NCBI GenBank assembly: GCA_016182605.1
Contig: JACPGE010000060.1
Location: forward strand, 9,807-73,806
Direction: 5' to 3'
From: Candidatus Hydrogenedentota bacterium
GTDB taxonomy: Bacteria; Hydrogenedentota; Hydrogenedentia; Hydrogenedentales; JAEUWI01
Length of the DNA stretch: 64,000 nt
The stretch's first letter is position 1, and each line of letters starts with the position of its first letter. The translations under genes were made by a program, and so were the position numbers. Positions 7,459-64,000 of the stretch are shown in pieces. The notes beneath the pieces were generated by a model that was given only the letters and a program-made list of their open reading frames with translations, was not told where the DNA came from and searched no databases.

Positions 7459-7544
7459 TGCCGCCCCGCTTAGAACGGCGGACCAGGAGAAGTCCAACAA
7501 GATCGGTTTTGAGCACCAAGGGCACTATTCTGAACGGCGCTAAC

Positions 7545-8368: not shown

Positions 8369-8760
8369 GGAAAATTCGGGGCAGTAACCATTTTTTGCAG
8401 GATTCTCGCCCGGTTGACGGGGTGTAAGCTGGTACCTTGACGAGGAATGCCTATGCTCGGCGAGCGAAGGCCTACTTGGGTGGTGTCTAACAGGTAGCAC
8501 GCTGCTCGCCGAGCGGCGTGATTGGAGTGAGACCGCAAGTGTTAGCCCGCATATTTCACCACTTCAAGGTTTCTTGGCAACGAGTTCGACTTGGAAGATG
8601 GTGAAAAATGCTCAGCGTGGCGATGGTGCTGGCGTTCACCGGGCAGGCTAAATCACGGGCTGTTTGTTATTCCCAAGCTTGAAGTTGGGACAACGATATG
8701 TATGAATGGGTGTTACGACTACATCGTTTGGAGCCCGTGATTTATCCGAGTACACGGTCC
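8369..8760. repeat. Composite copy of the interspersed repeat family (minus orientation relative to the 54790 copy). It carries module R1, the 'gtgaaatatgcggg' module, the 50-bp core and its hairpin partner
   Basis: 8369..8540 is about 85% identical to 9249..9425 (direct). 8546..8662 is the reverse complement of 54905..55082. 8741..8759 (gagcccgtgatttatccg) pairs with 8644..8662 (ggctaaatcacgggctg) to form a 12-bp stem around a ~75-nt loop. Confidence 0.75.
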
Positions 8761-12708: not shown

Positions 12709-12780
12709 ATTTTAGCGCATTATCATTGAAAATTCAATGTGATGCGACGAAATTTCAATAATAAATCACTTGCGCCACAC

Positions 12781-33591: not shown

Positions 33592-34779
33592 TTGGCTTGG
33601 GATCTAAGAAATCAAAAAGCCAACTCTTGGATAGAGGTGAAAGCCGCCGTGCCGCAGACTAAGATTGTATCCGGCGCCGTTCACGGCCTTCGAAGATTCG
33701 GAAGCTTTTGGAAGGCATGTGCCGCACTCTTGCTGGGATCCGTGCTGGCCTTGCTCCTTGTCCTCGCGATCGACTTCGCATGCGGATTCATCTATCAGCG
33801 CAAACCGCCCGTTTTCGCTGAAAAGTCGGTTTCCGGAAGGCCGGTGAGTCTGCCAGACGGCAATCTGGGCTTCCACCTGGTTCCCAACGCGTCTGAACTC
33901 GTGAATCGGACTGCCGGCGCTCAAACCATATACAGCGTTACCTACACGACGGACGCCTGTGGCCGGCGCGTCGTGCCAGCGGCGGCGCATGGCGGCCAAA
34001 GCCAATTCCTGATCTTTTTCGGCTGCTCGTTTACATTTGGGGCTGGGCTGGGAGACAACGATACGCTCCCCAATCAAGTTGCGGCGCTTGCACCGGACTA
34101 CCATGTCTATAACTATGCGTGCGGCGGCTACGGCCCCGCTCAGATGCTCGCCATACTGGAATCTGGCGTCCTCCCCAAAGAGATTCAGGAACCGGCTGGA
34201 ATCGCAGTATATGTACTGCGCCCGGGTCACGTAGCGCGGGTGGTCGGTTCCATGCGGACGACGGCATCGTGGGCACGGCATTTCCCCTATTACGCCATCG
34301 AGGACGATGGCGCCCTGTCGCGGCGGGGAAATTTCGATGAGGACCGCCGGTTTACGAATTGGTATTACAACCTGGCGGGTAAAAGCGGCATCTTGAATTT
34401 GCTCTCCCTCGACTTGCCGCTTTGGTATCGCGAATCCCATTACGCACTCACAGCGCGAGTTCTCATTGAGTCGCGGGACCTCTTCTTGAAGTCATTCAAG
34501 GACGGAAAATTTTATGTCGTTTTTTATCCCGCATGGGACGACTACCGGCTCGTGTATACGCGCATTCTTCCGTATCTCGAAAAAGCAGGCGTCACGGTCT
34601 TGAACTATAACCAGTTGCTCGAGCCAGAACACGACGCCTATTTTCTGCATCCCGTGTATGACCGGCACCCCTCCGCAGTTGCCCATAAACAAGTCGCCGC
34701 GCAACTCGCTCAAGACCTTGACGTGATTCCCCCGCAACAAAGCGAATCGAACGGGTCCGTGACGCCAGACAGCCCGTGA
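33592..34779 (+). CDS. Membrane-anchored SGNH/GDSL-like hydrolase or acyltransferase-accessory-like protein
   Basis: N-terminal TM helix ACAALLLGSVLALLLVLAI. Motif QFLIFFGCSFTFGAG resembles the GDS(L) block. 395 aa. GC lower than the neighbouring genes. Confidence 0.45.
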   Translation: MAWDLRNQKANSWIEVKAAVPQTKIVSGAVHGLRRFGSFWKACAALLLGSVLALLLVLAIDFACGFIYQRKPPVFAEKSVSGRPVSLPDGNLGFHLVPNASELVNRTAGAQTIYSVTYTTDACGRRVVPAAAHGGQSQFLIFFGCSFTFGAGLGDNDTLPNQVAALAPDYHVYNYACGGYGPAQMLAILESGVLPKEIQEPAGIAVYVLRPGHVARVVGSMRTTASWARHFPYYAIEDDGALSRRGNFDEDRRFTNWYYNLAGKSGILNLLSLDLPLWYRESHYALTARVLIESRDLFLKSFKDGKFYVVFYPAWDDYRLVYTRILPYLEKAGVTVLNYNQLLEPEHDAYFLHPVYDRHPSAVAHKQVAAQLAQDLDVIPPQQSESNGSVTPDSP

Positions 34780-34822
34780 TTTAACCTGCCCGCCGAACGC
34801 CAGCACCATCCTCACGCCGAGT
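34770..34822. repeat. Partial copy of the 50-bp repeat core (family 'cagcccgtgatttaacctgcccggtgaacgccagcaccatcgtcacgctga')
   Basis: cagcccgtgatttaacctgcccgccgaacgccagcaccatcctcacgccgag. Same orientation and ~90% identity to 55030..55082. Confidence 0.7.
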
Positions 34823-35161: not shown

Positions 35162-37246
35162 ATGAAAATGCCGCATACTGTAGCGCTCTGTCTTTTCGTG
35201 GCCAGTCTGGCCATGCCTTCCCTCGAAGCCCAACTCGACGCCTCCGGCGCGCTCGCCGGTCTATCCAGGCTCCAGGACGCGGTCTCGCGCAGGGAGTCCT
35301 CCTCCGACCCAAACTGGGACACCGGCAATGGGGATGCGCGCCGCCTGGAGCCGGGCGAAACCCTCGTGCTTGCAGACATCGATGGGCCCGGGGTGATCAC
35401 GCACTTTTGGAACACGATTGCCACGAAACAGGAACGCTACTCCAAGCTCATTTCGCTGCGCATCTACTGGGACCACGAAGAGCACCCTTCGGTCGAAGCG
35501 CCGCTGGGCGACTTCTTCGGTGTGGGCCACGGCATGGATGTCCCGTTCGAATCCCTGCCGGTGAATGTCTCCTCGGAAGGACGCGCGCGGAATTGTTACT
35601 GGCCCATGCCCTTCCGGAAACATGCGCGCTTCGAAGCAACCAATGAGGGCACGCTGCCCATAGACGCGTTCTACTTCCAGGTCGACTGGGAAAAGCGAAG
35701 CTTCATTGCCGAAGACGAAGCCTACTTCCACGCCTCCTACCGCCAGGAATTCCCCACAGAGATGGGGAAGCGTTTCTTAATCGCCGACATAGAGGGGCGC
35801 GGACACTACGTAGGCACGGTGCAGAGTGTGCGCCAGCGCCTGGATAGCTGGTACGGCGAGGGCGACGACTTCTTCTTCTTGGATGGTGACGAGTCGCCCA
35901 CGCTGCGTGGAACCGGTTCGGAGGACTATTTCCTGGACGCCTGGGGCTTCCGCCTTGCCGACAGCGCGTTCTATGGCGCGCCCATCTACGAGGGCGAGAT
36001 CGTCGGCGGGCGCACGAGCGTCTACCGCTGGCATATTGCCGATCCCGTGCGATTCGCCAAGTCGTTGCGGGTAGAAATTGAGCACGTGGGCCCAACCGTC
36101 AACGATTACTCGCTAGCCCGCGTGGGCTATGGGGAACGCCCTGACGATATGGCCACGGTAGCCTTCTGGTACCAGGTGGAGCCGCACAAGCCCTGGCCAG
36201 CCATGGCGAAGGGGCAGGATCGCCTCTATCCGGGTGGCTTTGAAGACCTGCCTTTTGGCCCGGAGGTAGACGAAAAATTTGCGCGCATCTGGCTCAACAC
36301 GGCCATCGAGGATCGCGTCGGTGCGCCGTCGCCGCTACGCTTTGACAGCGAGATCGCCATGCCCCACCCGATGGAGCTGGAGGTCTTCAATCCAACGGGC
36401 GTTCCCGTGGAAGTGCGGGGAGTATTGCCGGAACGCATCGATTTCACGATTCCAAACGGAAGTTTTCAGGTGGACGTAGCGCCGCGCGAAACGGAGATAG
36501 TGAAGGTGGATTTGCAGGCGCTGGAGCGCGTGGATCTGCGCGGCGCGGCTCCGCTCGGTTTGGAACTCCACCTGCTCTTCAAGCCGGAGGGCGGGGACCC
36601 GATGGAGATGATCCTGCCCCGCAACCTCTATCTGGAGGCGCCCTTTGCGTGCCGGACGGCTCCTGCGTCTCCGCGGGTGGACGGAGATCTGACTGACTGG
36701 ACCGAACTCCCGTTTGTGATGGCGGGCCCGGTAAGAGGCGACGAGGCCGCCGCGCACTGGACCGGTCCAGAAGACAGTTCATTCCGCTTCGGCCTGGCGC
36801 GGGACGAACAATTCGTCTATGTGGCCGTCGATGCCCGGGATGAAGAGCGGGTGAAAGCAGACAACAGCATGCCGTGGCATCAAGACGGGGTCGAGATTCG
36901 CATCAACGCCCAGGCCGATCCGATGCGCAGCGCTTCGAAGGGTCAGGGCGAGTTCAGCGAGATACTGCTCATCGCGGTGCCCAGCGGGGCCGCCGCACCC
37001 TTCAATCCGCGAGCGCTGCCCGAAGGCGTGCAGGCGGTGAATACGGTGCACGCGGGTGGACACCGCACGGAAGTGGCCATTCCCGTGGCTTGGCTGGACG
37101 CGCAGCAGGGCAGTGGCTGGAGCAAGTTCCGCCTAAACGTGACGCTGGACGACACGGATGGCGTACAACTTTGCCAGTTGTGGTGGCGTCCAGACTGGCG
37201 CAAGCGGCTCAGCCACGACGCTTCCGGCACCTTCGTGAAGCAGTAA
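35162..37246 (+). CDS. Secreted DUF2961/GH172-family protein (by motif recall) with a C-terminal CBM9/DOMON-like domain
   Basis: Signal peptide MKMPHTVALCLFVASLAMPSLEAQ. Conserved motifs WYGEGDDFFFLDG and LRGTGSEDYF are typical of the DUF2961/GH172 family. C-terminal DGDLTDWTELPF...HQDGVEIRINA resembles carbohydrate-binding family 9-like folds. Confidence 0.65.
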   Translation: MKMPHTVALCLFVASLAMPSLEAQLDASGALAGLSRLQDAVSRRESSSDPNWDTGNGDARRLEPGETLVLADIDGPGVITHFWNTIATKQERYSKLISLRIYWDHEEHPSVEAPLGDFFGVGHGMDVPFESLPVNVSSEGRARNCYWPMPFRKHARFEATNEGTLPIDAFYFQVDWEKRSFIAEDEAYFHASYRQEFPTEMGKRFLIADIEGRGHYVGTVQSVRQRLDSWYGEGDDFFFLDGDESPTLRGTGSEDYFLDAWGFRLADSAFYGAPIYEGEIVGGRTSVYRWHIADPVRFAKSLRVEIEHVGPTVNDYSLARVGYGERPDDMATVAFWYQVEPHKPWPAMAKGQDRLYPGGFEDLPFGPEVDEKFARIWLNTAIEDRVGAPSPLRFDSEIAMPHPMELEVFNPTGVPVEVRGVLPERIDFTIPNGSFQVDVAPRETEIVKVDLQALERVDLRGAAPLGLELHLLFKPEGGDPMEMILPRNLYLEAPFACRTAPASPRVDGDLTDWTELPFVMAGPVRGDEAAAHWTGPEDSSFRFGLARDEQFVYVAVDARDEERVKADNSMPWHQDGVEIRINAQADPMRSASKGQGEFSEILLIAVPSGAAAPFNPRALPEGVQAVNTVHAGGHRTEVAIPVAWLDAQQGSGWSKFRLNVTLDDTDGVQLCQLWWRPDWRKRLSHDASGTFVKQ

Positions 37247-37286: not shown

Positions 37287-38756
37287 TCATTTCCCCCGCT
37301 TCATCCGGATCATCTCCGCCTGACGCGCCTCGTGGAGCCCGGAATCGAGCCCGGAAGGATATTCATGGGGATAGATAAAACGCCGGATGCTCGGATGAAA
37401 CCGGCGCAAGTCATCGAAGGCGTGCTGGCGGATCTCGTGGATGCTCGGGGGCTCGTACACAAGGTGGCCCTGCTCGAAGATGGGCAAGAGTAAGTCAAAG
37501 CTCTTCGCATCCGGGGCTATGGTCTTTGTGCGGAAAGGGTTCATCGGATCCACCAGCGTCGTCGGCTCCGCTATCCCGTTACGCTCATCATAGATGCAGT
37601 CGCCCAGATATGTATCGCCGCGCCGGAACCGCCGGACGTTCAAAATGCCAGGAATGGAGTTCTTCGCCGCCTGCTCCGAAAGTTTGACCTTGTTTACCCA
37701 CTCCCCGGCGTCGTCCCGCACCGCCGCCAATTTGTAGACCGCGCCCAGCGCCGGCTGATCATACGCCGTGATCAATTTCGTCCCCACGCCCCACACCGCG
37801 ATGGTCGCGCCCTGATCCTTGAGCGAGCTAATAATGTGTTCGTCCAAGTCGTTCGAAGCAATGATACGCGTGTCCTGAAACCCCGCTTCATCCAGCAACT
37901 TGCGCGCTTCGATCGAGAGATAGGCCAAGTCGCCCGAATCCAGCCGGATACCGGCAAACTGATACCCCTTCTCGCGCAGCCGCTGCCCCGCCGCGATCGC
38001 GTTGCGCACCCCTCCCAGCGTGTCGTACGTGTCCACCAGAAACACGCAGTTGTTCGGCATGACCTCCGCATACGTCTCAAACGCCTGCAACTCGTCCGGA
38101 AAGAGCATCACCCAGGAATGGGCGTGCGTGCCGCGAACAGGAATACCGTAAATACGGCCCGCCAATACATTCGAGGTCGCAAAGCACCCGCCAATATACG
38201 CCGCACGGCTCGCCGCCAGGCCGCCATCGATTCCCTGTGCCCGGCGCAGCCCGAATTCCAGCACGGGATCCCCCTGGGCCGCATGGCAGACCCGCGCCGC
38301 CTTCGTGGCCACCAGGCTCTGGAAACCCACGATCGTGAGCAAGGCCGTCTCCAAAAGTTGCCCCTGAAGTATCGGACCCTGGATCCGCAACAATGGCTCC
38401 TGTGGAAAGACCGCGGCGCCTTCCGGAACCCCCTTCACACTGCACGAAAAGCGCAGGGCAAGCAAATACTCCAGAAAATCCTGCGAAAAAAGGGGCGCGC
38501 CATCGTTGCCGTTCAGCGTCCCCAGATAGGTCACATCGTCTTCGTCGAAGTGAAAATCCTGCAAATACTCGATCACCGTGCCCAGGCCGCACGCAAGCGT
38601 ATAGCCCGAGTTGAACGGCGGATGCCGGAACGCCAAATTGAAGATCGCCTCGCGCTCCGCCAGACCGGACTTCCAATAGGAATACGCCATCGTAATCTGG
38701 TAAAGATCGGTCAGCAGGGCCAATGAAGGCCGGTAGATCTCTCGCAATGCACTCAT
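37287..38756 (-). CDS. pncB: Nicotinate phosphoribosyltransferase
   Basis: MSALREIYRPSLALLTDLYQITMAYSYWKSG...GTHAHSWVM...IRLDSGDLAYLS. Collinear with the NAPRTase family. 489 aa. Confidence 0.9.
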   Translation of the reverse strand: MSALREIYRPSLALLTDLYQITMAYSYWKSGLAEREAIFNLAFRHPPFNSGYTLACGLGTVIEYLQDFHFDEDDVTYLGTLNGNDGAPLFSQDFLEYLLALRFSCSVKGVPEGAAVFPQEPLLRIQGPILQGQLLETALLTIVGFQSLVATKAARVCHAAQGDPVLEFGLRRAQGIDGGLAASRAAYIGGCFATSNVLAGRIYGIPVRGTHAHSWVMLFPDELQAFETYAEVMPNNCVFLVDTYDTLGGVRNAIAAGQRLREKGYQFAGIRLDSGDLAYLSIEARKLLDEAGFQDTRIIASNDLDEHIISSLKDQGATIAVWGVGTKLITAYDQPALGAVYKLAAVRDDAGEWVNKVKLSEQAAKNSIPGILNVRRFRRGDTYLGDCIYDERNGIAEPTTLVDPMNPFRTKTIAPDAKSFDLLLPIFEQGHLVYEPPSIHEIRQHAFDDLRRFHPSIRRFIYPHEYPSGLDSGLHEARQAEMIRMKRGK

Positions 38757-52259: not shown

Positions 52260-52284
52260 CAACCAATCTAGCGTCCAGTCCTGA

Positions 52285-52325
52285 CGGCCCCGGAAGTCCA
52301 CAGACTCCCGGGGCCGCTTTTCTCG
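52285..52325 (+). terminator. Rho-independent terminator candidate
   Basis: Stem cggccccgg / ccggggccg (9 bp, 14-nt loop) followed by cttttctc. About 25 nt after the stop at 52259. Confidence 0.4.
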
Positions 52326-52388: not shown

Positions 52389-52528
52389 TCCCGGATAAAT
52401 CACGGGCTCCACGTATTCGTGTCATAACCCCTTTTCTCGTCTGTCATTGCCACAACATGCACGGCGGCATCGCCAGACAGCCCGCGCTTTAGCCTGCCCG
52501 GTGAACGCCAGCGCCATCGTCACGCTGA
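52389..52528. repeat. Interspersed repeat copy (hairpin-partner module + loop + 50-bp core). Left member of a near-identical inverted pair with 63490..63603
   Basis: 52389..52460 differs from the reverse complement of 63531..63603 at a single position (tattcgtg vs tatttgtg). A further ~40 bp is ~70% identical. 52478..52528 is a core copy (cagcccgcgctttagcctgcccggtgaacgccagcgccatcgtcacgctga). Confidence 0.8.
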
Positions 52529-53006
52529 TGGACTGGATCGACGATCTGCCAGTGGAGATCGAGCTTGTCGCGGGGCTGCCGGGCGAAGCCGGCGCGGAAC
52601 CGGTGCAGCCGCGGGAACAGCGCCATAACGGCAGAAACTTGCCGCGCCTTCGCCCTGCTTGATAAAATCTCCCACGCAGTTGAAGTTCTTCCCCACGCAT
52701 GCCTCCGGCATGGATGCGCCCGATGGTTCACGCACACACCAGCGATGACTTGCGGCGCCCGCGTGAGCGGCGCCCGCACGGGGCCGCGTTTTTGCTGCAT
52801 TCCAACCCAACCTTCACCCCGTTTGACTGCCTCGATCCGTCTGCCGTATCTACCCCTGTCCCGCGCGGCGTCAAATGTCTGCCGTCAACGAGCGAAATCC
52901 TCGATGCGCCTGCCAGGATTCAACTCCACCCCCCATTCCGTGGGATTCCACAGCGCTGCTACAACCGCCGGGCAGTCGTTACTGCCGGGAAAGGCTCGAT
53001 ACAAAT

Positions 53007-54671
53007 ATGATCTGGATTCAGGAACTCTTCAAAGGAGAATCCATCGCCGGTACCGTCGCGATACTTGCCCTGGTCGCTGTGGTGGGACTCGTCTTCGGCA
53101 GCCTCAAACTCCGCGGCGTCGGTCTCGGTATTGCCGGCGTGCTCTTCTCCGGCCTCCTCTTCGGCCACCTCAAGTTCTCCGTCAATCCGGAGATGATGGA
53201 GTTCGCGCGCGAATTCGGACTCATCCTCTTCGTCTACTCCATCGGCATGCAAGTCGGGCCCGGCATCATCGACTCCCTCCGCCGCGAAGGGCTTCCCATG
53301 AATCTCCTCGCCGCAGGTGTCGTGCTCCTCGGAGCCGCAACCGCCCTCGTACTCGGCCGCTATTTCAATGTGGAAATGCCCGTCATCGTCGGCCTCCTTA
53401 GCGGCGCCACCACCAACACACCCAGCCTCGGCGCTGCCCAGGCCGCCATCTTCGATTCCGGTGGCGCCGCGGAACTGCTCGCCCTCCCCGGACTGGGCTA
53501 CGCCGTCGCCTATCCCTTCGGCATTGTCGGCATCATCCTCTCCATGCTCTTCTTGCGATTCTTCTTCCGCGTCAAAGTGGCCGGCGAGGCCGCCGCGCTC
53601 AAGCAGGCCCGCGCAGGGCAGGTCGAGTCGCTGGAACGCTCCAATCTGGCCGTCGAAAACCCCAATCTCGAAGGCATGCCACTCGGGGAAATATCGCTCT
53701 TCGAAGATTCCGGCGTCATCATCTCACGCGTCCAGCACGAAGGCATTCAATCCGTGGCCACCCCAAAGACCGTCCTCCACCTGGGAGACATCGTGCTCGC
53801 CGTGGGCCCGCCCAAAAAACTTCACGCACTCAAGCTCCTCGTGGGACAAAAGTCCGCGATCGATCTCTCCAGCGCACCCAGTGCCGTCGAATCGAAAAAA
53901 CTCATTGTCACAAAAAATAACGTCGTGGGAAAAACCCTCCGCGAACTCGCCCTGCCCATCCGTTTCAACGTGCGCGTTACCCGCCTCCTCCGTGCAGGCG
54001 TCGAAATGCCCATCGTGCCCTCCATGAAACTGCACTACGGTGACACCATCGTCACCGTCGGCGATAAGGAACACCTCGATCAGGTCGCAAGCATCGTCGG
54101 CAACTCCAAGCGCGCCCTGAACCATCCGGAAATGCTGCCCGTCTTCATCGGCATCGTGCTCGGCGTCATCGTGGGCAGCATTCCCTTTCACGTGCCCGGC
54201 GTGCCCGCACCCGTAAAGCTCGGCCTCGCCGGGGGCCCCTTGCTCGTCGCCATCGTCCTCAGCCGCCTCGGCAACGTGGGCAATGTCGTCTGGTACCTGC
54301 CCGACAGCGCCAGCCTCATCATCCGGGAACTCGGGATCGTGCTCTTCCTCTCCTGCGTCGGACTCAAGGCCGGCAACCACCTTATGGAAACCCTCGTAAA
54401 CGGCGACGGCCTGCTCTGGGTGTTCATCGGCGCCATGATCACCATGGTGCCCCTGATCGTCATCGGTGCGATCGCGCGCGTCGCCATGAAGATGAACTTC
54501 CTCTCCGTGTGCGGCCTCCTCGCCGGCAGCATGACCGATCCCCCCGCACTCGCCTTCGCCGGCAACTTCGCAGGCTCCGAAGGCCCCACCGTCGCCTACG
54601 CCACCGTCTACCCCCTCACCATGATCCTCCGCGTGATCATCGCCCAAGTCTTGATTCTCATGTTCCTGTGA
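53007..54671 (+). CDS. YidE/YbjL-type putative transporter (AAE, aspartate:alanine exchanger family) with two internal TrkA_C/RCK_C domains
   Basis: Duplicated 5-TM halves (GVGLGIAGVLFSGLLFGHL... and ...LGLAGGPLLVAIVLSRLG) separated by two RCK_C-like segments (MPLGEISLFEDSGVIISRVQHEG ; VVGKTLRELALPIRFNVRVTRLLRAG). Confidence 0.75.
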   Translation: MIWIQELFKGESIAGTVAILALVAVVGLVFGSLKLRGVGLGIAGVLFSGLLFGHLKFSVNPEMMEFAREFGLILFVYSIGMQVGPGIIDSLRREGLPMNLLAAGVVLLGAATALVLGRYFNVEMPVIVGLLSGATTNTPSLGAAQAAIFDSGGAAELLALPGLGYAVAYPFGIVGIILSMLFLRFFFRVKVAGEAAALKQARAGQVESLERSNLAVENPNLEGMPLGEISLFEDSGVIISRVQHEGIQSVATPKTVLHLGDIVLAVGPPKKLHALKLLVGQKSAIDLSSAPSAVESKKLIVTKNNVVGKTLRELALPIRFNVRVTRLLRAGVEMPIVPSMKLHYGDTIVTVGDKEHLDQVASIVGNSKRALNHPEMLPVFIGIVLGVIVGSIPFHVPGVPAPVKLGLAGGPLLVAIVLSRLGNVGNVVWYLPDSASLIIRELGIVLFLSCVGLKAGNHLMETLVNGDGLLWVFIGAMITMVPLIVIGAIARVAMKMNFLSVCGLLAGSMTDPPALAFAGNFAGSEGPTVAYATVYPLTMILRVIIAQVLILMFL

Positions 54672-54789
54672 GCAGCGCAAAACCTGAAAAGCCACGCCAA
54701 AACAAAGTCGCCAACAGCAAGATCGCTGCAATGGAAAACGTGGCGCCCACAGCTCAACGAGCCCGGCAACGCAAAGACCTTCTACGTCC

Positions 54790-55085
54790 CCGTCGGCCTT
54801 GCCGGAAGTAGGCCTTCGCTCGCCGGGCGCAGGTATGGGCGCTTTCCGTGCGGAGCCCAAGTGCGGGCGTGGAGTATGCCCTCGGGCAGGCAGTGGAGCG
54901 CGTTGCCCACAAGTTTTGAAGTGGTGAAATATGCGGGTTAGCCCGGATAAATCACGGGCTCCAGCCGACGGAGCCATAACTCTCACTCACACTTGCTGTT
55001 GCCCAAACCTTGGATCCGGAAACAACAGACAGCCCGTGATTTAACCTGCCCGGTGAACGCCAGCACCATCGTCACGCTGAGCAGT
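54790..55085. repeat. Most complete copy of the interspersed repeat family (about 295 bp; plus orientation)
   Basis: Modules in order: aggccttcgctcgccgggc ; ttgaagtggtgaaatatgcgggttagc ; cccggataaatcacgggctcc ; ~70-nt loop ; cagcccgtgatttaacctgcccggtgaacgccagcaccatcgtcacgctgagca. The stem aaatcacgggct/agcccgtgattt forms a 12-bp hairpin. Confidence 0.8.
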
Positions 55086-55172
55086 CAAAAATGCGCATAT
55101 TGATAATAATGGCTTATATTGACGGAGGGGGGCTTGGTTTGATGATGCCTGGTGGGTTCCGCGTGACGGGTC

Positions 55173-55201
55173 TTGACAGGGCATTCGCAGGGTGGCACAA
55201 T
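55173..55201 (+). promoter_or_regulatory. Sigma-70-like promoter candidate for the TetR-icmF cluster
   Basis: TTGACA-17 nt-CACAAT (or CAATAT at 19 nt). Followed by a palindromic gagcgctc core that could serve as the TetR operator. Confidence 0.3.
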
Positions 55202-55242
55202 ATTGAGCGAGCGCTCAGTCGGAACACGCTAAAGGTCTGCCC

Positions 55243-55875
55243 ATGTCTGGTGCCGCCACGCGAAATGTCCCCGCCCAAGTCAAGAATGCCGATTTGGTTT
55301 CCCGGCGCCGCCAGGAGTTAATCCAGGCGGCGGTGGGCCTCTTTGGGCGCAAGGGCTATCACGAGACGACCACGCGCGAGCTTGCCCGCGAGGTGGGCTG
55401 GTCGGTGGGGGCGCTTTACGAATACATTTCCTCGAAGGAAGATGTGTTGTATCTGGTGTGCGATTCCATCCATGGGGAGATGGAGCGCGCAGTGATTGAC
55501 ATCATGCCGGAGCAGCCGTGCAGTCTGGCATCTTTCCGGGAGATTTTTGCGGCGTACTTGCGCACGTGCGATCGGATGCAGGCGCCGATCCTGCTTATCT
55601 ACCAGCAGACGCGTTCGCTGAAGCCGGCGTCGCGGCAGCATGTGTTGCGGAACGAGGCGCGCATCACGGGGCTTTTCGAGGAATTGATTGCGCGGGGCGT
55701 GGCCGAGGGGGCGTTTTGCATCCCTGAGGGGACGCCCCCCGGATTGCTGGCGCACAATATTATGGTCACGGGTCACCAGTGGGCGTTTCGCCGCTGGGCC
55801 TTTGGCGGGCCGGTCCCGATTGAGACCTATATCCAGCAGCAATGGGCACTACTTGAACGCATCGTGACGGCCTGA
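55243..55875 (+). CDS. TetR/AcrR family transcriptional regulator
   Basis: N-terminal HTH RRQELIQAAVGLFGRKGYHETTTRELAREVGWSVGALYEYISSKEDVL. 210 aa. Confidence 0.85.
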   Translation: MSGAATRNVPAQVKNADLVSRRRQELIQAAVGLFGRKGYHETTTRELAREVGWSVGALYEYISSKEDVLYLVCDSIHGEMERAVIDIMPEQPCSLASFREIFAAYLRTCDRMQAPILLIYQQTRSLKPASRQHVLRNEARITGLFEELIARGVAEGAFCIPEGTPPGLLAHNIMVTGHQWAFRRWAFGGPVPIETYIQQQWALLERIVTA

Positions 55876-55901
55876 GGGCCGCAGCCAGGAGAGACCGGAT
55901 C

Positions 55902-58900
55902 ATGGAGAGCACCCAGCTTCAAGCGCCGCGCGTGGGCTTTCGGATCGAGCGCCCGATTCGCGTGATTACGGCGACGGCGCTTTTTGACGGTCATGACGCG
56001 GCGATCAACCTGATGCGGCGCATCATGCAGGACCTTGGCGCGGAGGTGATCCATCTGGGGCACAACCGCAGCGCGCTGGAGGTGGTGGAGGCGGCGATAC
56101 AGGAAGACGCGGCCGCGATCTCGGTCAGTTCGTACCAGGGCGGGCATGTCGAATACTTTAAATATATGATCGACTTGCTGCGTGAACGCGGCGCGGGCCA
56201 CATCCAGGTTTTTGGCGGCGGCGGCGGGGTAATTGTGCCGCTGGAGATCAAAGAGCTTGAGGCCTATGGCGTCAACCGGATCTATTCTCCGGAAGACGGG
56301 CGCCGCCTGGGGCTGGCGCCCATGATCGAGGATCTGCTCCGCCGGACGGCTGCGGCACGGCGTCCCGCCGCGTTTCCCGCGCCCTGCGACTTGAACAACC
56401 CGTTGGCGCTTGCACAGGCGATAACGGCGGTGGAAGAGGCCAAGCTGAATCAGGATCCGCGCTTGGCGGATTATCTGGAGGCCGCGGGCCGGGGCATGAA
56501 GACGCCGCCGGTCCTGGGGGTGACGGGCACGGGCGGCGCGGGCAAGTCTTCCCTGGTCGACGAATTGGTGAACCGCTTCCTTCGCGACAGCGGCGCGCGG
56601 CGCATTGCGGTGCTGTCGATCGATCCGACGCGGCGGCGTACGGGCGGCGCGCTGCTGGGCGACCGTATCCGGATGAATTCCGTGGGCAGTCCGCGGGTGT
56701 TCTTGCGATCGCTTGCGACGCGCACCCGTCACGCGGATGTGTCGGACGCGCTGGGCGAGATCTTGAGCCTGTTGAAGGCGGCTCCCTTCGACCTGATTGT
56801 GGTGGAGACGGCGGGCATCGGCCAGGGCGACGCGGGAATTGCCCCGTACGTCGATGGGGCGCTTTATGTGATGACGGCGGAGTTTGGCGCGGCGAGCCAG
56901 CTTGAGAAGATTGACATGATCGACTATGCGGATATTGTGGCGATCAACAAGTTCGACCGGGCGGGGAGCGCGGATGCGCTGCGCGATGTGCGCAAGCAGT
57001 TTCAGCGCAACCACCACGCTTTCGACCGCGCCCCGGAAGAGATGCCTGTGTACGGCACCATAGCCGCGCGCTTCAATGACGATGGCGTGACGGCACTCTA
57101 CCACGGCATTTTGGACTTGCTGCGCGGGAAAGGCCATATCGACTGGACATCCTCCCTCCCACGCCCGTCCAGCAAGCACGCGAGTGAGCGGCAGGCGGTG
57201 ATTCCCAAAGAGCGCATGCGGTACCTTGCGGATATTGCGGGGACGGTCCGCGGCTACAAGCAGACGGCGCACACGCAGGCCCGGATCGCCCGCGACGCGT
57301 GGCACCTGCGCGAGTCGGCGGCGCTGGTCACGGATGCGGCGGCACGCGCGGTGCTGGAGGACGCGGCGAAGGAGAAGGAGCAGGCGCTTCTCCCCCATTG
57401 CGCGCGCCTGATTGCCGGATTCGACGCGCTCCGCACGGCGTATACGGCGGACGAGTATGTGTTCAACGTGCGCGGCAAAGAACTGCGCACCCCGCTCCAC
57501 CGCGAATCGCTGTCGGGGTCGCGCATACCGCGGGTATGCCTGCCGGCGAGCGCCGATCATGGGGAACGGCTGTCGTGGCTGCTTCTGGAGAATATGCCGG
57601 GGTCGTTTCCCTTTACGGCGGGGGTCTTTCCCTTCAAGCGCGGCGACGAGGATCCCACGCGCATGTTTGCGGGCGAGGGCGATGCGAAGCGCACGAATGC
57701 GCGCTTCAAATACCTCTCGCGCAATTCGGAGGCCAAGCGGCTCTCGACCGCATTTGACTCGGTGACGCTCTATGGCGCCGATCCGGAGCCGCGTCCGGAT
57801 ATCCTGGGCAAGGTAGGCACTTCGGGGGTGTCCATAGCGACGCTGGACGATATGAAACAGCTTTACGACGGGTTCGATCTCAGTGCGCACAACACGTCGG
57901 TGTCGATGACGATCAACGGGCCGGCGCCGGCGATTCTGGCGATGTTTTTTAACACGGCGATGGATCAGCGGCTGGACGCTTTCCGGCGTGAGCATGGGCG
58001 TGAAGCGGACGCGGCTGAAGCGGCGGCAATTCGCGCGCAGGTGTTGACGCAGGTGCGGGGGACGGTGCAGGCGGACATACTGAAGGAGGATCAGGGGCAG
58101 AACACCTGTATCTTTGGGCTCGATTTTGCGCTGCGGATGCAGGGGGACATGCAGCAGTATTTCATTGAGCACCAGGTGCGCAATTTCTACTCCATTTCGA
58201 TCTCGGGTTACCATATCGCGGAAGCGGGCGCGAACCCCATCACGCAGCTTGCGTTTACGCTGGCAAACGGGTTTACGTTTGTGGAGTATTTCCTCTCCCG
58301 CGGCATGGCGGTGGACGACTTCGCGCCGAATCTTTCCTTCTTCTTTTCCTGCGGTATGGATCCGGAATACGCCGTGTTGAACCGGGTTGCCCGGCGGATC
58401 TGGGCAGTGGCGCTGCGCGACCGGTATGGCGCGAACGAACGCAGCCAGAAACTGAAGACACATATACAGACGAGCGGGCGATCGCTGCATGCGCAGGAGG
58501 TGGACTTTAACGATATCCGCACGACGCTGGAGGCGTTGACCGCGCTGTACGACAACTGCAATTCGCTGCACACGAACGCCTTCGACGAGGCCGTGACAAC
58601 GCCGACAGAGAACAGCGTGCGGCGCGCGCTGGCCATCCAGCTTATCATCAACCGGGAGCACGGGCTGGCGATGAACGAAAATACGCTCCAGGGGAGTTTC
58701 ATCATCAACGAGCTTACGGAACTGGTGGAGGAAGCGGTGCTGACGGAGTTCGAACGGCTTGCGGAGCGGGGCGGGGTGCTGGGGGCGATGGAGCGCGGGT
58801 ATCAGCGCGGCCGGATACAGGACGAGTCGCATCACTACGAGATGCTCAAGAGCAGCGGGGCCCACCCGCTGGTGGGCGTAAACACCTTTGTAAATCCGGA

Positions 58901-59162
58901 CGCGGATCACGAGGCCTTGATGGGGGCAATGGAATTGCGCCGGGGCACGGACGAAGAGAAGCAAAGGCAGGTGCGGCAGGTGCGCGCGTTCAAGGCGGCG
59001 CACGAGGCGGAGTCCACGGCGGCATTGGCCCGGCTCCAGGAAGTGGCATTGAGGGAAGAGAATCTCTTTGCGGCGTTGATGGAGGCGGCCCGAGTGTGTA
59101 CGCTGGGTCAGATCTCGAACGCCCTTTTTGAAGTGGGCGGCCAGTACCGGCGCAACACCTGA
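55902..59162 (+). CDS. icmF: Fused isobutyryl-CoA mutase IcmF (B12-binding domain + MeaB-like G-protein domain + mutase substrate-binding domain)
   Basis: N-terminal B12-binding domain VITATALFDGHDAAINLMRRIMQDLGAEVIHLGHN (DxHxxG B12 motif). Central GTPase domain GVTGTGGAGKSSLVDEL (P-loop) and ETAGIGQ switch. C-terminal mutase barrel. 1086 aa. Confidence 0.85.
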   Translation: MESTQLQAPRVGFRIERPIRVITATALFDGHDAAINLMRRIMQDLGAEVIHLGHNRSALEVVEAAIQEDAAAISVSSYQGGHVEYFKYMIDLLRERGAGHIQVFGGGGGVIVPLEIKELEAYGVNRIYSPEDGRRLGLAPMIEDLLRRTAAARRPAAFPAPCDLNNPLALAQAITAVEEAKLNQDPRLADYLEAAGRGMKTPPVLGVTGTGGAGKSSLVDELVNRFLRDSGARRIAVLSIDPTRRRTGGALLGDRIRMNSVGSPRVFLRSLATRTRHADVSDALGEILSLLKAAPFDLIVVETAGIGQGDAGIAPYVDGALYVMTAEFGAASQLEKIDMIDYADIVAINKFDRAGSADALRDVRKQFQRNHHAFDRAPEEMPVYGTIAARFNDDGVTALYHGILDLLRGKGHIDWTSSLPRPSSKHASERQAVIPKERMRYLADIAGTVRGYKQTAHTQARIARDAWHLRESAALVTDAAARAVLEDAAKEKEQALLPHCARLIAGFDALRTAYTADEYVFNVRGKELRTPLHRESLSGSRIPRVCLPASADHGERLSWLLLENMPGSFPFTAGVFPFKRGDEDPTRMFAGEGDAKRTNARFKYLSRNSEAKRLSTAFDSVTLYGADPEPRPDILGKVGTSGVSIATLDDMKQLYDGFDLSAHNTSVSMTINGPAPAILAMFFNTAMDQRLDAFRREHGREADAAEAAAIRAQVLTQVRGTVQADILKEDQGQNTCIFGLDFALRMQGDMQQYFIEHQVRNFYSISISGYHIAEAGANPITQLAFTLANGFTFVEYFLSRGMAVDDFAPNLSFFFSCGMDPEYAVLNRVARRIWAVALRDRYGANERSQKLKTHIQTSGRSLHAQEVDFNDIRTTLEALTALYDNCNSLHTNAFDEAVTTPTENSVRRALAIQLIINREHGLAMNENTLQGSFIINELTELVEEAVLTEFERLAERGGVLGAMERGYQRGRIQDESHHYEMLKSSGAHPLVGVNTFVNPDADHEALMGAMELRRGTDEEKQRQVRQVRAFKAAHEAESTAALARLQEVALREENLFAALMEAARVCTLGQISNALFEVGGQYRRNT

Positions 59163-59173
59163 GGGAGCGCGGC

Positions 59174-59635
59174 ATGAGCACGCAGGATACGAAGACGGTC
59201 GCGACGGCGCACTGCCGCGTCGCGGCCCGGGGCGATGGCGCGTTGCTGGAGGCGTTTGCGTTGCGTTACCGGGTCTTCGCGCATGAACAGAACGTGACGC
59301 CAGAAATTGAACTGGATGACGAGGACCGGACGGCGGCGCACTGCGTGGCGGAGATGGACGGGCGCGTAGTGGGCACGCTGCGGATCCTGGATCGGCCGGG
59401 CTACACCAAGATTGGCCGGGTCGCGGTGGATGCCGCGTGGCGGAAGCACGGCATCGGGCAGCAGATCATGGAGTTTGCCCACGCAGTGATTCGCGAACGG
59501 CATGCCCCGCAGGTTGTTCTGCATGCGCAGACGGCGGTGCGGCGCTTTTACGAGCGGCTGGGCTACACGGTCTGTGGCGAGGAGTTTCTGGAAGACGGCA
59601 TTGCGCATATTGAAATGCGGAAGCGGCTGGATTGA
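59174..59635 (+). CDS. GNAT family N-acetyltransferase (ElaA-like)
   Basis: VGTLRILDRPGYTKIGRVAVDAAWRKHGIGQQIMEFAHAVIRERHAPQVVLHAQTAVRRFYERLGY. Canonical GNAT motifs A/B. Confidence 0.8.
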   Translation: MSTQDTKTVATAHCRVAARGDGALLEAFALRYRVFAHEQNVTPEIELDDEDRTAAHCVAEMDGRVVGTLRILDRPGYTKIGRVAVDAAWRKHGIGQQIMEFAHAVIRERHAPQVVLHAQTAVRRFYERLGYTVCGEEFLEDGIAHIEMRKRLD

Positions 59636-59656
59636 GCCGCTGGGCTTCAGGAGCGA

Positions 59657-60040
59657 ATGGGCATGCTGGACATGGCGCAATTGGCCTGTTTTTCGGCGAC
59701 GGCACGGCCCGGCGAGGCGCGGCGCTTCTACGGGAAGATATTGGGGCTGCATCTGGTGGAAGAGACGGCCTTTGCGCTCGTCTTCGATGCCAACGGCACT
59801 TCCTTGCGCATTCAGAAGGCGCCCGCCCACGATCCGGCGGCGCATACGGCACTGGGGTGGGTGGCGCCGGACCTTCGCGGGATGATACACCGCCTGATAC
59901 TGAAGGGAGTGCGTTTCGAGCGCTACGCGCCGCTGCAGCAGGATGACGATGCGATCTGGACCGCGCCTGGCGGGGCGCAGGTGGCGTGGTTCAAGGATCC
60001 GGACGGCAATGTCATTTCCCTTTCCGAGGATCCGCGCTGA
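59657..60040 (+). CDS. VOC-family (glyoxalase/bleomycin-resistance fold) protein
   Basis: ARRFYGKILGLHLVEE...LRIQKAP...WFKDPDGNVISLSED, a typical betaalphabetabetabeta-module motif set. 127 aa. Confidence 0.7.
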   Translation: MGMLDMAQLACFSATARPGEARRFYGKILGLHLVEETAFALVFDANGTSLRIQKAPAHDPAAHTALGWVAPDLRGMIHRLILKGVRFERYAPLQQDDDAIWTAPGGAQVAWFKDPDGNVISLSEDPR

Positions 60041-60301
60041 GCCCCACACATCCACGCGGAGAGCGTGTGAGCGGCCTCCCGCGTCCGCCGATGGGTGATT
60101 CGCAAGGTGCTGCCCCGTAGCCAGTTCGGCGCTTGGAGCCGCGGTGCGGCGCCACCGCGCCTGCCGGGAAGGGCGGGCCTTGCTTGCATCCCGGCGCGGC
60201 ATGCCGCATGATATGGATTCGGCACCATCAGGTCTTGCGCGCGCTCCTTCGCGCAGAAACCGGCCCTTCAGAGCGGTGCACGTGCGAGATTATCCAACAG
60301 T

Positions 60302-61669
60302 ATGACTCTGCTTTTATTCAGCGTTGCCTGCGCCCTTTTCATTTCGTTCGTATGTTCTTTGCTGGAGGCGGCGCTTCTCAGTGTTACGCCGAGCCAGGTG
60401 GCGAGTCTTTCCGCGCGGCGGCCGGCGCTAGGGGCGATCTGGCGCGGTTTCAAGTCGAATATAGAGAAGCCTATCGCCGTCATTCTGATAACGAACACGA
60501 CGGCGCACACGATTGGGGCCACGATTGCGGGCGCCCAGTTCGAGCAATTGTTTGGCCCCAGATGGCTGATACTTTTCTCGATAGTGTTGACTTATCTCAT
60601 GCTTCAGTTTACCGAGATTTTGCCCAAGACGCTGGGGGTGCAATACAACGGGTTTCTTGCGCCGGCGATTGCGGCGCCGCTGCAGGTGCTGGTGCAGATC
60701 ACACGCCCGATCCTCTGGTTTATCCATCTGGTGAACCGCCCCTTCGATCGCAAGACGGCGCTGGAGGACAACACGCTCGAAGAGATTGCGGCGCTGGCGG
60801 CCACCGCGCGGCTCTCCCACGTAATCGATCCGCATCAGGCGCGCATGATCGTGGCGGCCTCGGAGCTGGAGGACATTTGGGTGCGTCAAATCATGACGCC
60901 CCGCACCGAAGTGGTTTTCCTGCGCACCTCCGATCCGATCGAGGAGGTGATCAAGGTGTTGAAGAAGAGTCCGTACACGCGGCTGCCGCTGTGTGAAGAC
61001 GATGTAGACCACGCCATCGGCATGGTGCATGTGAAAGACATAATCAAGGCGCTCGATCTCGTTCCCGGCCGTTTCCATATAGAGCGGGTGGCGGGCAAAG
61101 AGCACACGACGGTGGAACCGGTGGAGGTGCTGCCGGGCATGGCGCTCCATGTCCTGGGTTCCGGCACGATCGACTTGATGCGCCTGAAGCGGGACGTGGT
61201 GTTTCTTCCGGAGCACTTGAACATACTTCAGGCGTTGCGCCGTTTTCAGGACGCGCGGCTCCACTTGGGGCTCGTGGTGGATGAGTATGGTTCCACGCTG
61301 GGCGTCGTAACGCTTGAAGACGTGATCGAGGAGATGGTGGGCGATATCAAGGACGAATTCGACCTCTTTGCGCCGGAGATGGTGCATGAGTCCGAAGAGG
61401 GCCTTCGGATCAACGGGCGCTTCCCGCTGCATGAGTTGGCGCACTACCTTCCCGATTGCGGTATCGACCACACGGAAGAAGACGTGGACACGGTGGGCGG
61501 TTACATCAGCCAGGTCATGTCACGGGTGCCGCAGGCAGGCGAAAACACCGTGGTGGGTCTGTACACCTGGACAGTGACCTCGTCGGATTCCCGGCGTGTG
61601 CGCGAGATATTGATTGCGCGGGTCAACGAGAATGGGGACACGACCGAAGCCGGCGCGAACGGCGCATGA
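60302..61669 (+). CDS. HlyC/CorC family transporter (DUF21-CBS pair-CorC_HlyC)
   Basis: N-terminal DUF21 TM domain (ILPKTLGVQY... is the family hallmark). Two CBS motifs (IMTPRTEVVFLR..., ...LGLVVDEYGSTLGVVTLEDVIEEMVGDI). C-terminal transporter-associated domain. Confidence 0.85.
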   Translation: MTLLLFSVACALFISFVCSLLEAALLSVTPSQVASLSARRPALGAIWRGFKSNIEKPIAVILITNTTAHTIGATIAGAQFEQLFGPRWLILFSIVLTYLMLQFTEILPKTLGVQYNGFLAPAIAAPLQVLVQITRPILWFIHLVNRPFDRKTALEDNTLEEIAALAATARLSHVIDPHQARMIVAASELEDIWVRQIMTPRTEVVFLRTSDPIEEVIKVLKKSPYTRLPLCEDDVDHAIGMVHVKDIIKALDLVPGRFHIERVAGKEHTTVEPVEVLPGMALHVLGSGTIDLMRLKRDVVFLPEHLNILQALRRFQDARLHLGLVVDEYGSTLGVVTLEDVIEEMVGDIKDEFDLFAPEMVHESEEGLRINGRFPLHELAHYLPDCGIDHTEEDVDTVGGYISQVMSRVPQAGENTVVGLYTWTVTSSDSRRVREILIARVNENGDTTEAGANGA

Positions 61670-62034
61670 CGGGGCTCTTGCCTTAATGGGCAAAGATTGC
61701 AGTCACCGGGAGCATCGCGGTTTGGGGAACGGGGGGCCAGGGCGCTTCGCGGACCACGGGGCACACGGAAAAAGACAAAAAAAGAAGGAAGCCAAGGGGG
61801 CTGTCCCCGCCGGGCGTGCATCTCCTCAACGCCGCAGCACCGTCCCGCACCGGCGCGGGGCTGTCCCCGAAACGTGTAGATGAATGGGGGGATCTCGTTG
61901 CGAGACGAGGGGGGTTTGCGGGTCAATAAGTAGACATTTTGAGATTAATTCAAAATTCAATAAAAACGATAAGAACAATCAGAGCGGGGTGAAGACCGCT
62001 TTTATGGGCTTCAGGAATCCAAGCCGATTTTGTT

Positions 62035-63300
62035 TTAGAATTCGGCGGGGAGGACGCGGACGAGTTCTTCGAGGGTGGTGATGCCGCGGGCAGCCTTGTT
62101 ATAGCCGTCGTTGGCGAGGGTTTCCATGCCGCCTTTGAGTGCGTGGACGTGGATCTGGGCGGTGGTGGGACGTTCGAGGATGCATTCGGCCATGTCGCGG
62201 CTGACCTGGAAGAGTTCACCGATGGAGGCGCGTCCACGGTAGCCGATGCGGTTACAGGCTTCGCAGCCGGCACCCTGGATGAACTTGGGTTTGGTTTTTT
62301 TGCGGTCCTTAAAGCGTTCGAGGAGTATGGGGGAGGGTTTGTAGGGCCGGGCGCATTCGGGGCAGTTGAGGCGGATGAGACGCTGGGCGAGCACGCCGGT
62401 GACGGAGGAGGCGACGAGGAAGGGCTCGATGCCCATGTCGAGGAGGCGGGTGAAGACGCCGGCGGCGGTGCCACTGTGGATGGTGCTGATGACAAAGTGT
62501 CCGGTGAGTCCGGATTGAATGGCCATGCGGGCGGTTTCGTAGTCGCGGATTTCGCCGACCATGATGACCTCGGGGTCTTGGCGCAGAATGGCGCGCAGGG
62601 CGGTGGCGAAGGTGAATTCGACGTGGGGATTGACCTGGATCTGGGCGACGCGATCGAGGGTGTATTCGACGGGGTCTTCGATGGTGACGATGTTTGTGGT
62701 CTGGGATTGCAGCGCCATCATCTCCCGGAGGAGGGCATAGATGGTGGTTGTTTTGCCGCTTGAGCTGGGTCCGGTGAGGAGTAGGGTGCCCGTGGGGCGG
62801 GCGACGATTTCCCGCAGCGATTCCGTGATGTGCGGCTCGAATCCGAGGGTTTCGAGGGTGTAGATGTCGAGGCTGTCGCCCAAGAGGCGGATGACGGTTT
62901 TTTCGCCGCGAATGGTGGGCACGGTGGAAACGCGCATGGGGCGGCTGCAGGAGGTTTTTTCCGAATCGATGCGCCCGTCCTGGGGGACATCTTTGCGATA
63001 GACGACGAGATCGGCCAGGACTTTGATGCGCGCGCCGAGTTTTGCCTGATATTCGCGGGGAATGAGTGCGACCTGCTGCAGGATGCCGTCGAGCCGGTAT
63101 CGCAGGGAGAGGACATCATTCCAGGCTTCCAGATGGATATCGCTGGCGCCGTGGTAGGCGCCCTGGCTGAGAATGAGGTCGATGGCATCGGCGACGCCAT
63201 TGTCATCGCTTTGTTCCAGAGCATTGAGGAGGCGTTCCTGGATGGCGGCGAGGGGCAGTGCCCGCACGAGATCCTGATCCATTTGTGAATTCTTGGTCAC
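62035..63300 (-). CDS. GspE/PilB-family type II/IV secretion system ATPase (short form, lacking the N-terminal N1 domain)
   Basis: Walker A LLLTGPSSSGKTTTIYALL. Asp box IVTIEDPVEY. Walker B VIMVGEIRDYETA. His box GHFVISTIHSG. Tetracysteine motif CPECARPY...GAGCEACNRIGYRGR. Confidence 0.85.
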   Translation of the reverse strand: MTKNSQMDQDLVRALPLAAIQERLLNALEQSDDNGVADAIDLILSQGAYHGASDIHLEAWNDVLSLRYRLDGILQQVALIPREYQAKLGARIKVLADLVVYRKDVPQDGRIDSEKTSCSRPMRVSTVPTIRGEKTVIRLLGDSLDIYTLETLGFEPHITESLREIVARPTGTLLLTGPSSSGKTTTIYALLREMMALQSQTTNIVTIEDPVEYTLDRVAQIQVNPHVEFTFATALRAILRQDPEVIMVGEIRDYETARMAIQSGLTGHFVISTIHSGTAAGVFTRLLDMGIEPFLVASSVTGVLAQRLIRLNCPECARPYKPSPILLERFKDRKKTKPKFIQGAGCEACNRIGYRGRASIGELFQVSRDMAECILERPTTAQIHVHALKGGMETLANDGYNKAARGITTLEELVRVLPAEF

Positions 63301-63489
63301 GTCAATCCCTCTCTGGAGCGAAAATGTGGTAGATTTAATCAGTTGACACTGCGGAAACTATTCTCACCCGTACAGATGGGAAAAGTCAACGGTGCGAACC
63401 CGCCTATTTCGCCATTTTGAGCGGTTCTGAGGAGCAGATCTTCCCGGAAAGCGGTGAAATATTCGGGGCGCGAGTATGGCTTGGCCCCT

Positions 63490-63603
63490 GCCGGAGCGAG
63501 CCAATCGCGGGCTGTCCGGCAATTCCACTGTGCATGTTGTGGCAATGACAGACGAGAAAAGGGGTTATGACACAAATACGTGGAGCCCGTGATTTATCCG
63601 GGC
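63490..63603. repeat. Interspersed repeat copy. Right (inverted) member of the near-identical pair with 52389..52500
   Basis: The reverse complement of 63531..63603 equals 52389..52460 with 1 mismatch. Confidence 0.8.
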
Positions 63604-63808
63604 CAGTCTGAACCGTATGAGCCCCGATTTGATTCGCGGGGCATGGGCAACCTATAGTTACTGCGAATGTGTCAACAAAAAACGTTGACCGATTCAGGCA
63701 ATATTCTTATACTGCTACAATGGACGCTGGGGAGCGTAGTTCGCCGAGGCCACTTGGGGCTGTCGATGCCGGGCTTTCACGGCGGGAGTAGAGGCCGGGA
63801 AGAGGATC

Positions 63809-64000
63809 ATGGAAGAACCAACCAAAGTTTGGACGACATACCTGCCTGGATATCCCACGTGGTGGGAATTGGTGTCATTGCTTGTGGTGGTGGCGATTAT
63901 CATGGCCCTGGGGCAGGCGATCAAGCGGTTTTGGACGGCGAACAACGATTCGGTGCCGATACCGGTTGCGCTGGTGGTTTGGGTGGCGTCTTTTGCGCTG
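63809..64000 (+). CDS. 3'-partial ORF encoding a small-TM protein of unknown function
   Basis: RBS GGGAAGAGG 6 nt before the ATG. MEEPTKVWTTYLPGYPTWWELVSLLVVVAIIMALGQAIKRFW... Open to the window end. Confidence 0.3.
   Translation, partial: MEEPTKVWTTYLPGYPTWWELVSLLVVVAIIMALGQAIKRFWTANNDSVPIPVALVVWVASFAL

Follow-up and report, generated by a model that had tools for sequence, protein, structure and literature searches.

Several kinds of bacterial repeat and rearrangement provide a frame in which a pair of inverted repeats can be placed. Miniature inverted-repeat transposable elements (MITEs) are short (below ~600 bp), non-coding and bounded by terminal inverted repeats and a target-site duplication; the Correia elements of Neisseria, for example, measure ~100-155 bp and duplicate TA. 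The enterobacterial repetitive intergenic consensus (ERIC) sequences of Enterobacteriaceae, also called intergenic repeat units (IRU), are intergenic imperfect palindromes of ~127 bp with no evident transposase. On a larger scale, homologous recombination between inverted rRNA operons, insertion sequences or repetitive extragenic palindromic (REP) and MITE repeats inverts the intervening DNA over hundreds to thousands of base pairs of homology, invertons and shufflons (Hin/Gin-type segments, fimS and the Bacteroides invertons among them) have a dedicated recombinase in or beside the segment, and composite transposons combine transposase-coding terminal copies with an outer duplication. Here, a stretch of 64,000 nt (the window) from the metagenome-assembled genome (MAG) of a Candidatus Hydrogenedentota bacterium is analysed (assembly GCA_016182605.1, contig JACPGE010000060.1, positions 9,807 to 73,806 of the forward strand), in which two near-identical repeat copies in inverted orientation enclose an 11.2-kb block of seven genes. 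The copies belong to a repeat named family A, a small (~141 nt), non-coding, imperfectly palindromic intergenic element that is MITE- or ERIC-like in structure. Family A is lineage-specific and was not detected outside this Hydrogenedentes MAG in the collections searched. The near-identity of the two copies probably results from past homologous exchange between copies, the 11.2 kb being ordinary chromosomal DNA and not a mobile or programmed invertible unit; a probability of roughly 60% is assigned to this reading.

An inverted pair within a family of small repeats

The near-identical inverted pair announced by the original prediction is real. Positions 52390-52462 and the reverse complement of 63602-63530 agree at 72 of 73 nt, with the sole mismatch at 52418 dividing the tract into exact runs of 28 and 44 nt, and identity is still 93% over 100 nt when 52390-52489 on the plus strand is compared with the reverse complement of 63503-63602 (blastn E = 5e-36). 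The outer ends had been drawn one base too wide, at 52389 and 63603, two positions that do not match each other. A further ~40 bp of weaker similarity had also been described; this holds for element positions 74-100, where 21 of 27 nt agree, and fails beyond them, where only ~46-50% do. Over the whole 141-nt element the identity of the pair is 79%, exactly that of the copies at 54.9 and 8.7 kb, so that the claim of a similarity far above that of any other two members stands for the first 73 nt and is lost for the element as a whole. The pair is exceptional only in this tract. Likewise, the 85-90% identity credited to the other pairs proves to be 58-79% over 141 nt, and values of 85-97% are reached only in the 3' arm plus tail and only among the copies at 52.4, 54.9 and 8.7 kb (89-97% for the tail alone).

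The copies were listed with an nhmmer profile built from them and run over the 64-kb window, which yields four full copies, one partial copy and nothing more (Table 1). The full copies are all intergenic and align over 141 nt with a single 1-nt gap. Each comprises a 5' arm of 22 nt (CCCGGATAAATCACGGGCTCCA), at least 21/22 identical in every pair, an interior of ~65 nt that is conserved in length and highly variable in sequence, a 3' arm (AGCCCGTGATTTA) complementary to the 5' arm and, outside the 3' arm, a conserved tail of ~35 nt (GCCTGCCCGGTGAACGCCAGCACCATCGTCACGCTGAG). The termini of the family read CCCGGATAAATCAC and are also written CCCGSATAWWTCAC. In the copies at 54.9 and 8.7 kb the arms form 13 perfect pairs (TAAATCACGGGCT / AGCCCGTGATTTA), and the predicted fold of the 8.7-kb copy is stabler than 200 of 200 shuffled sequences (z = -3.7). 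Both copies of the highlighted pair have degraded arms; the 52.4-kb copy consists of the 5' arm CCCGGATAAATCACGGGCTCCA, the loop, a 3' arm AGCCCGCGCTTTA with two uncompensated mismatches and a well-kept tail. Direct repeats and target-site duplications are missing from the flanks of all four full copies; at its 3' end, the limit of the element is uncertain. A 395-aa open reading frame (ORF) at 33592-34779, which has no Pfam match, ends at a stop codon (TGA within AGCCCGTGATTTA) that belongs to the partial copy.

Other identities of the element were considered and rejected. A coding element was set aside: an open frame (…VTMVLAFTGQAKSRAV…) runs on the reverse strand of several copies, but the substitutions in one shared frame of this strand are mostly non-synonymous, with no bias to synonymous sites on inspection, and frames and stops differ between copies. 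A conserved structure in RNA or single-stranded DNA was also discarded, since the arm pairing, perfect in two copies, is disrupted in the pair by changes that are not compensated; the short hairpins that follow the 5' arm are out of register between copies, and the copies represent three sequence types only, too few for covariation. Integron attC sites were excluded as well, since inspection of the aligned copies revealed no R'' (RYYYAAC) or R' (GTTRRRY) core sites at the arm positions. In addition, no integrase was found among the window ORFs scanned and the copies lie 2.5-45 kb apart.

Searches for family A elsewhere were negative. Patterns based on a 20-mer and on the arm-gap-arm arrangement gave 0 matches in 185,579 species-representative genomes, and the 20-mer gave a single match in the JGI metagenomes, which lacks the 3' arm, apparently lies in coding sequence and is read as chance. 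Viral contigs (tail search) and plasmids (blastn) contained no family-A matches, and Rfam returned nothing relevant, either at gathering thresholds over the whole window or in an E-value scan of 52.2-55.3 kb. Across these Rfam, genome, metagenome, viral and plasmid searches, no sequence similarity of family A to any known element was detected, and no literature was found on Hydrogenedentes repeats or on the source sample.

A second small palindromic repeat, family B, adjoins three of the A copies on differing sides, and every B copy lies beside an A copy. Such varied arrangements are as expected for independently inserted small elements. The B termini (CCCGMATATTTCACC … GGTGAAATATGCGGG) are similar to those of family A, and the two families may share a mobilising enzyme.

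Mosaic identity and the enclosed block

The mismatches between the two copies of the pair are distributed very unevenly, with 1 in positions 1-73, 6 in positions 74-100 and 22 in positions 101-141. When the first 73 positions are set against positions 74-141 (1 and 28 mismatches), Fisher's test gives p = 9e-10, and the heterogeneity persists within the first 100 nt (p = 0.0014). Uniform decay after a simple duplication cannot produce such a distribution. The loop is identical at 50 of 51 positions (98%) in the pair and at 45-59% in the other pairs. The 63.6-kb copy has, by comparison, the most diverged 3' arm and tail of the family, with 49-70% identity to any other copy and ~50% in the tail. 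Both copies of the pair also share a derived T-to-C change in the 3' arm (CAGCCCGCG). This mosaic supports the earlier suggestion of recent gene conversion or exchange between the copies, and conversion or crossover is considered the probable cause of the near-identity. Gene conversion over a short tract, with the invariant 5' arm as its anchor, could have taken place, or a crossover that left a chimeric copy. The near-identical tract of 73 nt begins at the 5' arm and breaks off abruptly, on two copies that differ greatly in the history of their 3' halves.

Several observations weigh against exchange. The comparison is based on the 4.5 copies of the window, and the same interior in copies elsewhere would make the pair a young subfamily. 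Conversion normally needs homology on both sides, and the boundary at positions 73/74 falls where the subfamilies share little. The divergence is moreover graded (~1%, then 22%, then >50%) and does not form a clean two-state mosaic, and polishing or bubble merging during metagenome assembly could have slightly inflated the identity between copies. Finally, target-site duplications are absent and no cognate transposase was seen, so that family A can only be presumed to be mobile.

An explanation that dispenses with exchange is that one active MITE subfamily recently gave rise to both copies as sister insertions, and that the 63.6-kb copy afterwards lost its 3' half or had it replaced locally, for instance when the element was truncated at about position 100 and the neighbouring family-B element inserted. 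The shared interior (50/51) and the shared change in the 3' arm would follow directly from common descent, a family-B element does overlap the tail end of the 63.6-kb copy, and the ~50% similarity past position ~100 could partly be chance in GC-rich sequence. However, the B element begins only at about position 128, and divergence is already present at position 74. Positions 74-100 are clearly homologous and 22% diverged as against 1.4% in positions 1-73 (the p = 0.0014 given above), which a simple truncation does not explain. There are neither target-site duplications nor a transposase to back recent transposition. Sister insertion is regarded as unlikely, and exchange between the copies is preferred.

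The seven enclosed genes are those listed in the original prediction, namely genes for a YidE-type transporter, TetR, IcmF, GNAT, VOC and CorC proteins and a GspE-like ATPase, as identified with Pfam. Pfam scans covered the block genes and other ORFs of the window, and no transposase, integrase, invertase or recombinase was found among the ORFs scanned; the statement that no transposase lies between the two copies is thereby borne out. The further proposal of a non-autonomous composite mobile element, bounded by the pair and with the seven genes as cargo, is almost certainly wrong. Its sole support is the inverted orientation of two similar ends, of which only 73-100 nt are shared. The outer flanks carry no direct repeats (…CATCTAT on the left, CCAGTCTG… on the right), and a third family-A copy sits within the block, so that the copies at 52.4 and 54.9 kb form a direct pair around YidE and those at 54.9 and 63.6 kb a second inverted pair. 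When tetranucleotide profiles are computed strand-symmetrically, 55.1-64 kb correlates with the remainder of the window at r = 0.93-0.95, equal to the range within the window; together with the GC content, this native composition also rules out a foreign island. In addition, the GC skew at third codon positions (GC3 skew; Table 1) matches the left flank in YidE and the right flank from TetR through GspE, from which it follows that any cargo would have been settled for long in its present strand context. The block genes are functionally unrelated, and CorC relatives with 61-70% amino-acid identity, looked up on four contigs, have entirely different neighbours, none of them genes of the block; CorC is the only block gene for which relatives were looked up, the nearest having at most 70% amino-acid identity. 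Hallmarks of a mobile element are thus absent and the composition is native: the 11.2-kb interval is not a discrete unit, and it consists of ordinary chromosomal DNA between two of several nearby copies.

Possible inversion of the block and the GC-skew switch

On the plus strand, GC skew is negative over the first 54.8 kb of the window and positive over the remainder, up to 64 kb. The minimum of the cumulative GC skew lies at 54803, in the YidE-TetR intergenic region and at the third family-A copy. An inversion of long standing, with the 54.9-kb (+) and 63.6-kb (-) copies as its ends, is disfavoured as the cause of the switch, as the skew stays positive past 63.6 kb: it is +0.20 in the 398 nt from 63603 to 64000, a value reached by 0 of 1089 windows of the left domain, and the GC3 skew of the terminal ORF is +0.64. 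Neither the border at 52.39 kb nor that at 63.6 kb is a GC-skew discontinuity. The switch either resembles an origin or marks the breakpoint of a rearrangement that has its partner beyond the window.

That the 11.2-kb segment is currently invertible, with a RecA crossover flipping it in part of the population and conversion keeping the copies identical, is unlikely. The inverted orientation of the copies, their exact runs and 93% identity over 100 nt are what such a crossover would use, and the mosaic identity implies that sequence has been exchanged between the two. Furthermore, inversion of a segment with an internal skew switch preserves the negative-to-positive pattern, so that skew cannot refute a 52.4-63.6 kb inversion and no selection against it is expected on that ground. 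In E. coli, RecA-dependent recombination is efficient above a minimum length that 44 nt only just exceeds; judged by this minimum, a longest exact match of 44 nt makes inversion possible in principle and its expected rate low. Direct evidence exists for the assembled orientation only, neither close relatives nor population data came to light, and a site-specific recombinase is missing from the window ORFs scanned. A switch in phenotype is not to be expected either. According to consensus scans and inspection of the sequence, which yield pattern matches only, the 52.4-kb copy lies between a terminator-like hairpin (~52284-52325, after the 596-aa gene) and a promoter-like site of YidE (52639-52668), and the 63.6-kb copy between the promoter-like sites of the divergently transcribed GspE gene and terminal ORF. 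With breakpoints placed between terminators and promoters, promoters would not be swapped and each gene would keep its own after inversion, which would be phenotypically silent. Inversion between the arms would accordingly be a rare and silent event and not a switch.

A more far-reaching possibility is that the minimum at 54.8 kb is an unconventional chromosomal origin, set among clustered A, B and C repeats and without dnaA linkage or a cluster of DnaA boxes, and that the pair mediates recurrent origin-spanning inversions which homogenise its copies. A V-shaped minimum of the cumulative skew is the signature of an origin, and such a minimum is present at 54803. The copies of the pair lie 2.4 kb to the left and 8.8 kb to the right of the switch, with three of the four full A copies within 9 kb of it, and inversions around an origin would leave the skew pattern intact while keeping the copies homogenised. 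Against this stands the gene orientation, as most genes left of the switch would be transcribed head-on to replication. No TTATCCACA-like DnaA box with at most one mismatch occurs within 9 kb of the switch, although this consensus may not be that of the phylum, and the YidE-TetR intergenic region contains only two sites with two mismatches. No dnaA, dnaN or other replication genes were found among the window ORFs scanned. An origin whose inversions maintain the pair is considered very unlikely, and past exchange between the copies, within ordinary chromosomal DNA, is retained as the explanation of their near-identity.

Surroundings of the repeats and comparison with known systems

The window has a G+C content of 61% and an ordinary chromosomal gene set, including mutL, miaA, a P-type ATPase, a flagellar operon of the flgF-to-flgL type, pncB, MCP, IcmF and others; no tRNA and no known RNA family were found in it. 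The repeats, the block genes and the region of the skew switch are compiled in Table 1.

Table 1. Repeat copies, genes of the 11.2-kb block and associated features. Positions refer to the window; GC3 skew is that of the plus strand.
Feature	Position	Strand	GC3 skew	Remarks
Family A, 52.4-kb copy (left arm of the pair)	52390..52530	+		Full; nhmmer E = 3e-43
Family A, 63.6-kb copy (right arm of the pair)	63462..63602	-		Full; nhmmer E = 7e-38
Family A, third copy (54.9 kb)	54942..55082	+		Full; inside the block, YidE-TetR intergenic region
Family A, fourth copy (8.7 kb)	8610..8750	-		Full; in a 2.1-kb repeat-rich non-coding region
Family A, partial copy (34.8 kb)	34761..34821	+		3' arm and tail only; E = 5e-13
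Family B, small palindromic repeat	63388..63470	-		CCCGAATATTTCACC ... GGCGAAATAGGCGGG; abuts and overlaps the tail of the 63.6-kb A copy
Family B, other copies	8543-8608; 54892-54940			
Family C module	54806-54836			In the YidE-TetR intergenic region
YidE-TetR intergenic region	54672..55242			Skew switch and repeat modules C, B, A
596-aa flank gene			-0.41	
YidE-type transporter gene	52875..54671	+	-0.52	Pfam Asp-Al_Ex and TrkA_C; likely true start near 53007
TetR	55243-55875	+	+0.24	Pfam; positive-skew domain
IcmF	55902-59162	+	+0.20	Pfam B12-binding, MeaB and MM_CoA_mutase; positive-skew domain
GNAT	59174-59635	+		Pfam; positive-skew domain
VOC/glyoxalase	59657-60040	+		Pfam; positive-skew domain
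CorC/HlyC-family transporter	60302..61669	+	+0.18	Pfam CNNM, CBS and CorC_HlyC
Orphan T2SSE/GspE-family ATPase	62035..63300	-	+0.63	Pfam T2SSE family

Within the block, the CorC protein is 100% identical to a recorded protein of a 'Candidatus Hydrogenedentes bacterium' MAG, and the same CorC is present on a 3.9-kb Logan contig from run SRR12113422, which stops short of the repeats. A near-perfect palindrome, TGAGCGAGCGCTCA, at 55203-55218, just 3' of the best promoter-like site before TetR (55173-55201), is a candidate TetR operator for the TetR-IcmF-GNAT-VOC cluster. The GspE-family ATPase has no neighbours in the window with a role in type II secretion or type IV pili. The terminal ORF (63809-64000) encodes a membrane-like protein (MEEPTKVWTTYLPGYPTWWELVSLLVVVAII…) and runs past the window end; its 64-residue N-terminal fragment matched 0 proteins in a collection of 5.8 billion sequences, though other proteins of that contig are recorded.

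Further repeat-rich or unusual spots lie to the left of the block. The region at 7460-9550 comprises 2.1 kb without a convincing gene and is dense in dispersed and inverted repeat modules, among them palindromes of the GCTCGCCGAGCG type, two copies of TGTCATCTCGAACGCAGTGAGAGATCTCC and direct repeats spaced by 881 bp (8372-8519 and 9254-9403). The only two perfect DnaA-box sequences of the window, at 8148 and 8201, are located one in each arm of a 20-bp inverted repeat. Genes for a SIR2_2-domain protein, an AAA_14/DUF4143 ATPase and a HicB-like antitoxin lie in a low-GC patch at 10259-13197 (0.54, compared with 0.61 for the window), which may be a small defence or toxin-antitoxin islet. Around 100 bp of the 3' end of pncB (nicotinate phosphoribosyltransferase; 37287-38756, minus strand) are duplicated at 85% identity (34858-34959 and 37305-37407). 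The duplicates flank a DUF2961/CBM9 gene (34988-37246), an arrangement which suggests that this gene was inserted or rearranged into the site, and GC skew at 35-38 kb departs toward zero or positive values.

Taken as a whole, the analysis describes a small repeat family from a candidate phylum about which little is known, and its value is chiefly for annotation and assembly. Family-A copies have probably exchanged sequence. Rearrangements, and assembly errors in MAGs, are likely to have their breakpoints at repeats of this sort. The most useful lead is that a cluster of repeats coincides with a sharp switch in GC skew, which marks either an origin of replication or the breakpoint of a rearrangement in an uncultured lineage. 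Nothing suggests that the 11.2-kb block itself functions or moves as a unit.

In comparison with the systems described at the outset, the block resembles site-specific invertible segments in that inverted repeats flank it. It differs from invertons in being far larger, in having no promoter placed for switching and in having no invertase or other recombinase, in or beside the segment, among the ORFs scanned across the window. Neither transposase-coding terminal copies nor an outer duplication, as in composite transposons, are present. With inversions by homologous recombination, the locus shares inverted homologous sequences that bracket a segment and the footprint of an exchange between them, but the longest exact match is far below the homologies of the known cases and the assembled orientation is the only one observed. 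As regards family A itself, it is unlike ERIC in occurring in another phylum, in lacking sequence homology and in its hypervariable interior, and like ERIC/IRU in its similar size, imperfect palindrome, intergenic position and lack of an evident transposase. From MITEs, family A is set apart by the conserved tail outside its inverted arms, which is atypical, by the absence of a cognate transposase or insertion sequence from the window ORFs scanned and, as a difference from the TA-duplicating Correia elements, by the absence of a target-site duplication at its four full copies. Like the Correia elements and other bacterial MITEs, it is small (141 nt) and non-coding and possesses terminal inverted arms of 13-16 bp, perfect in two of the four copies, and its copies are dispersed between genes in both orientations, with diverged interiors and clustered with other small repeats.

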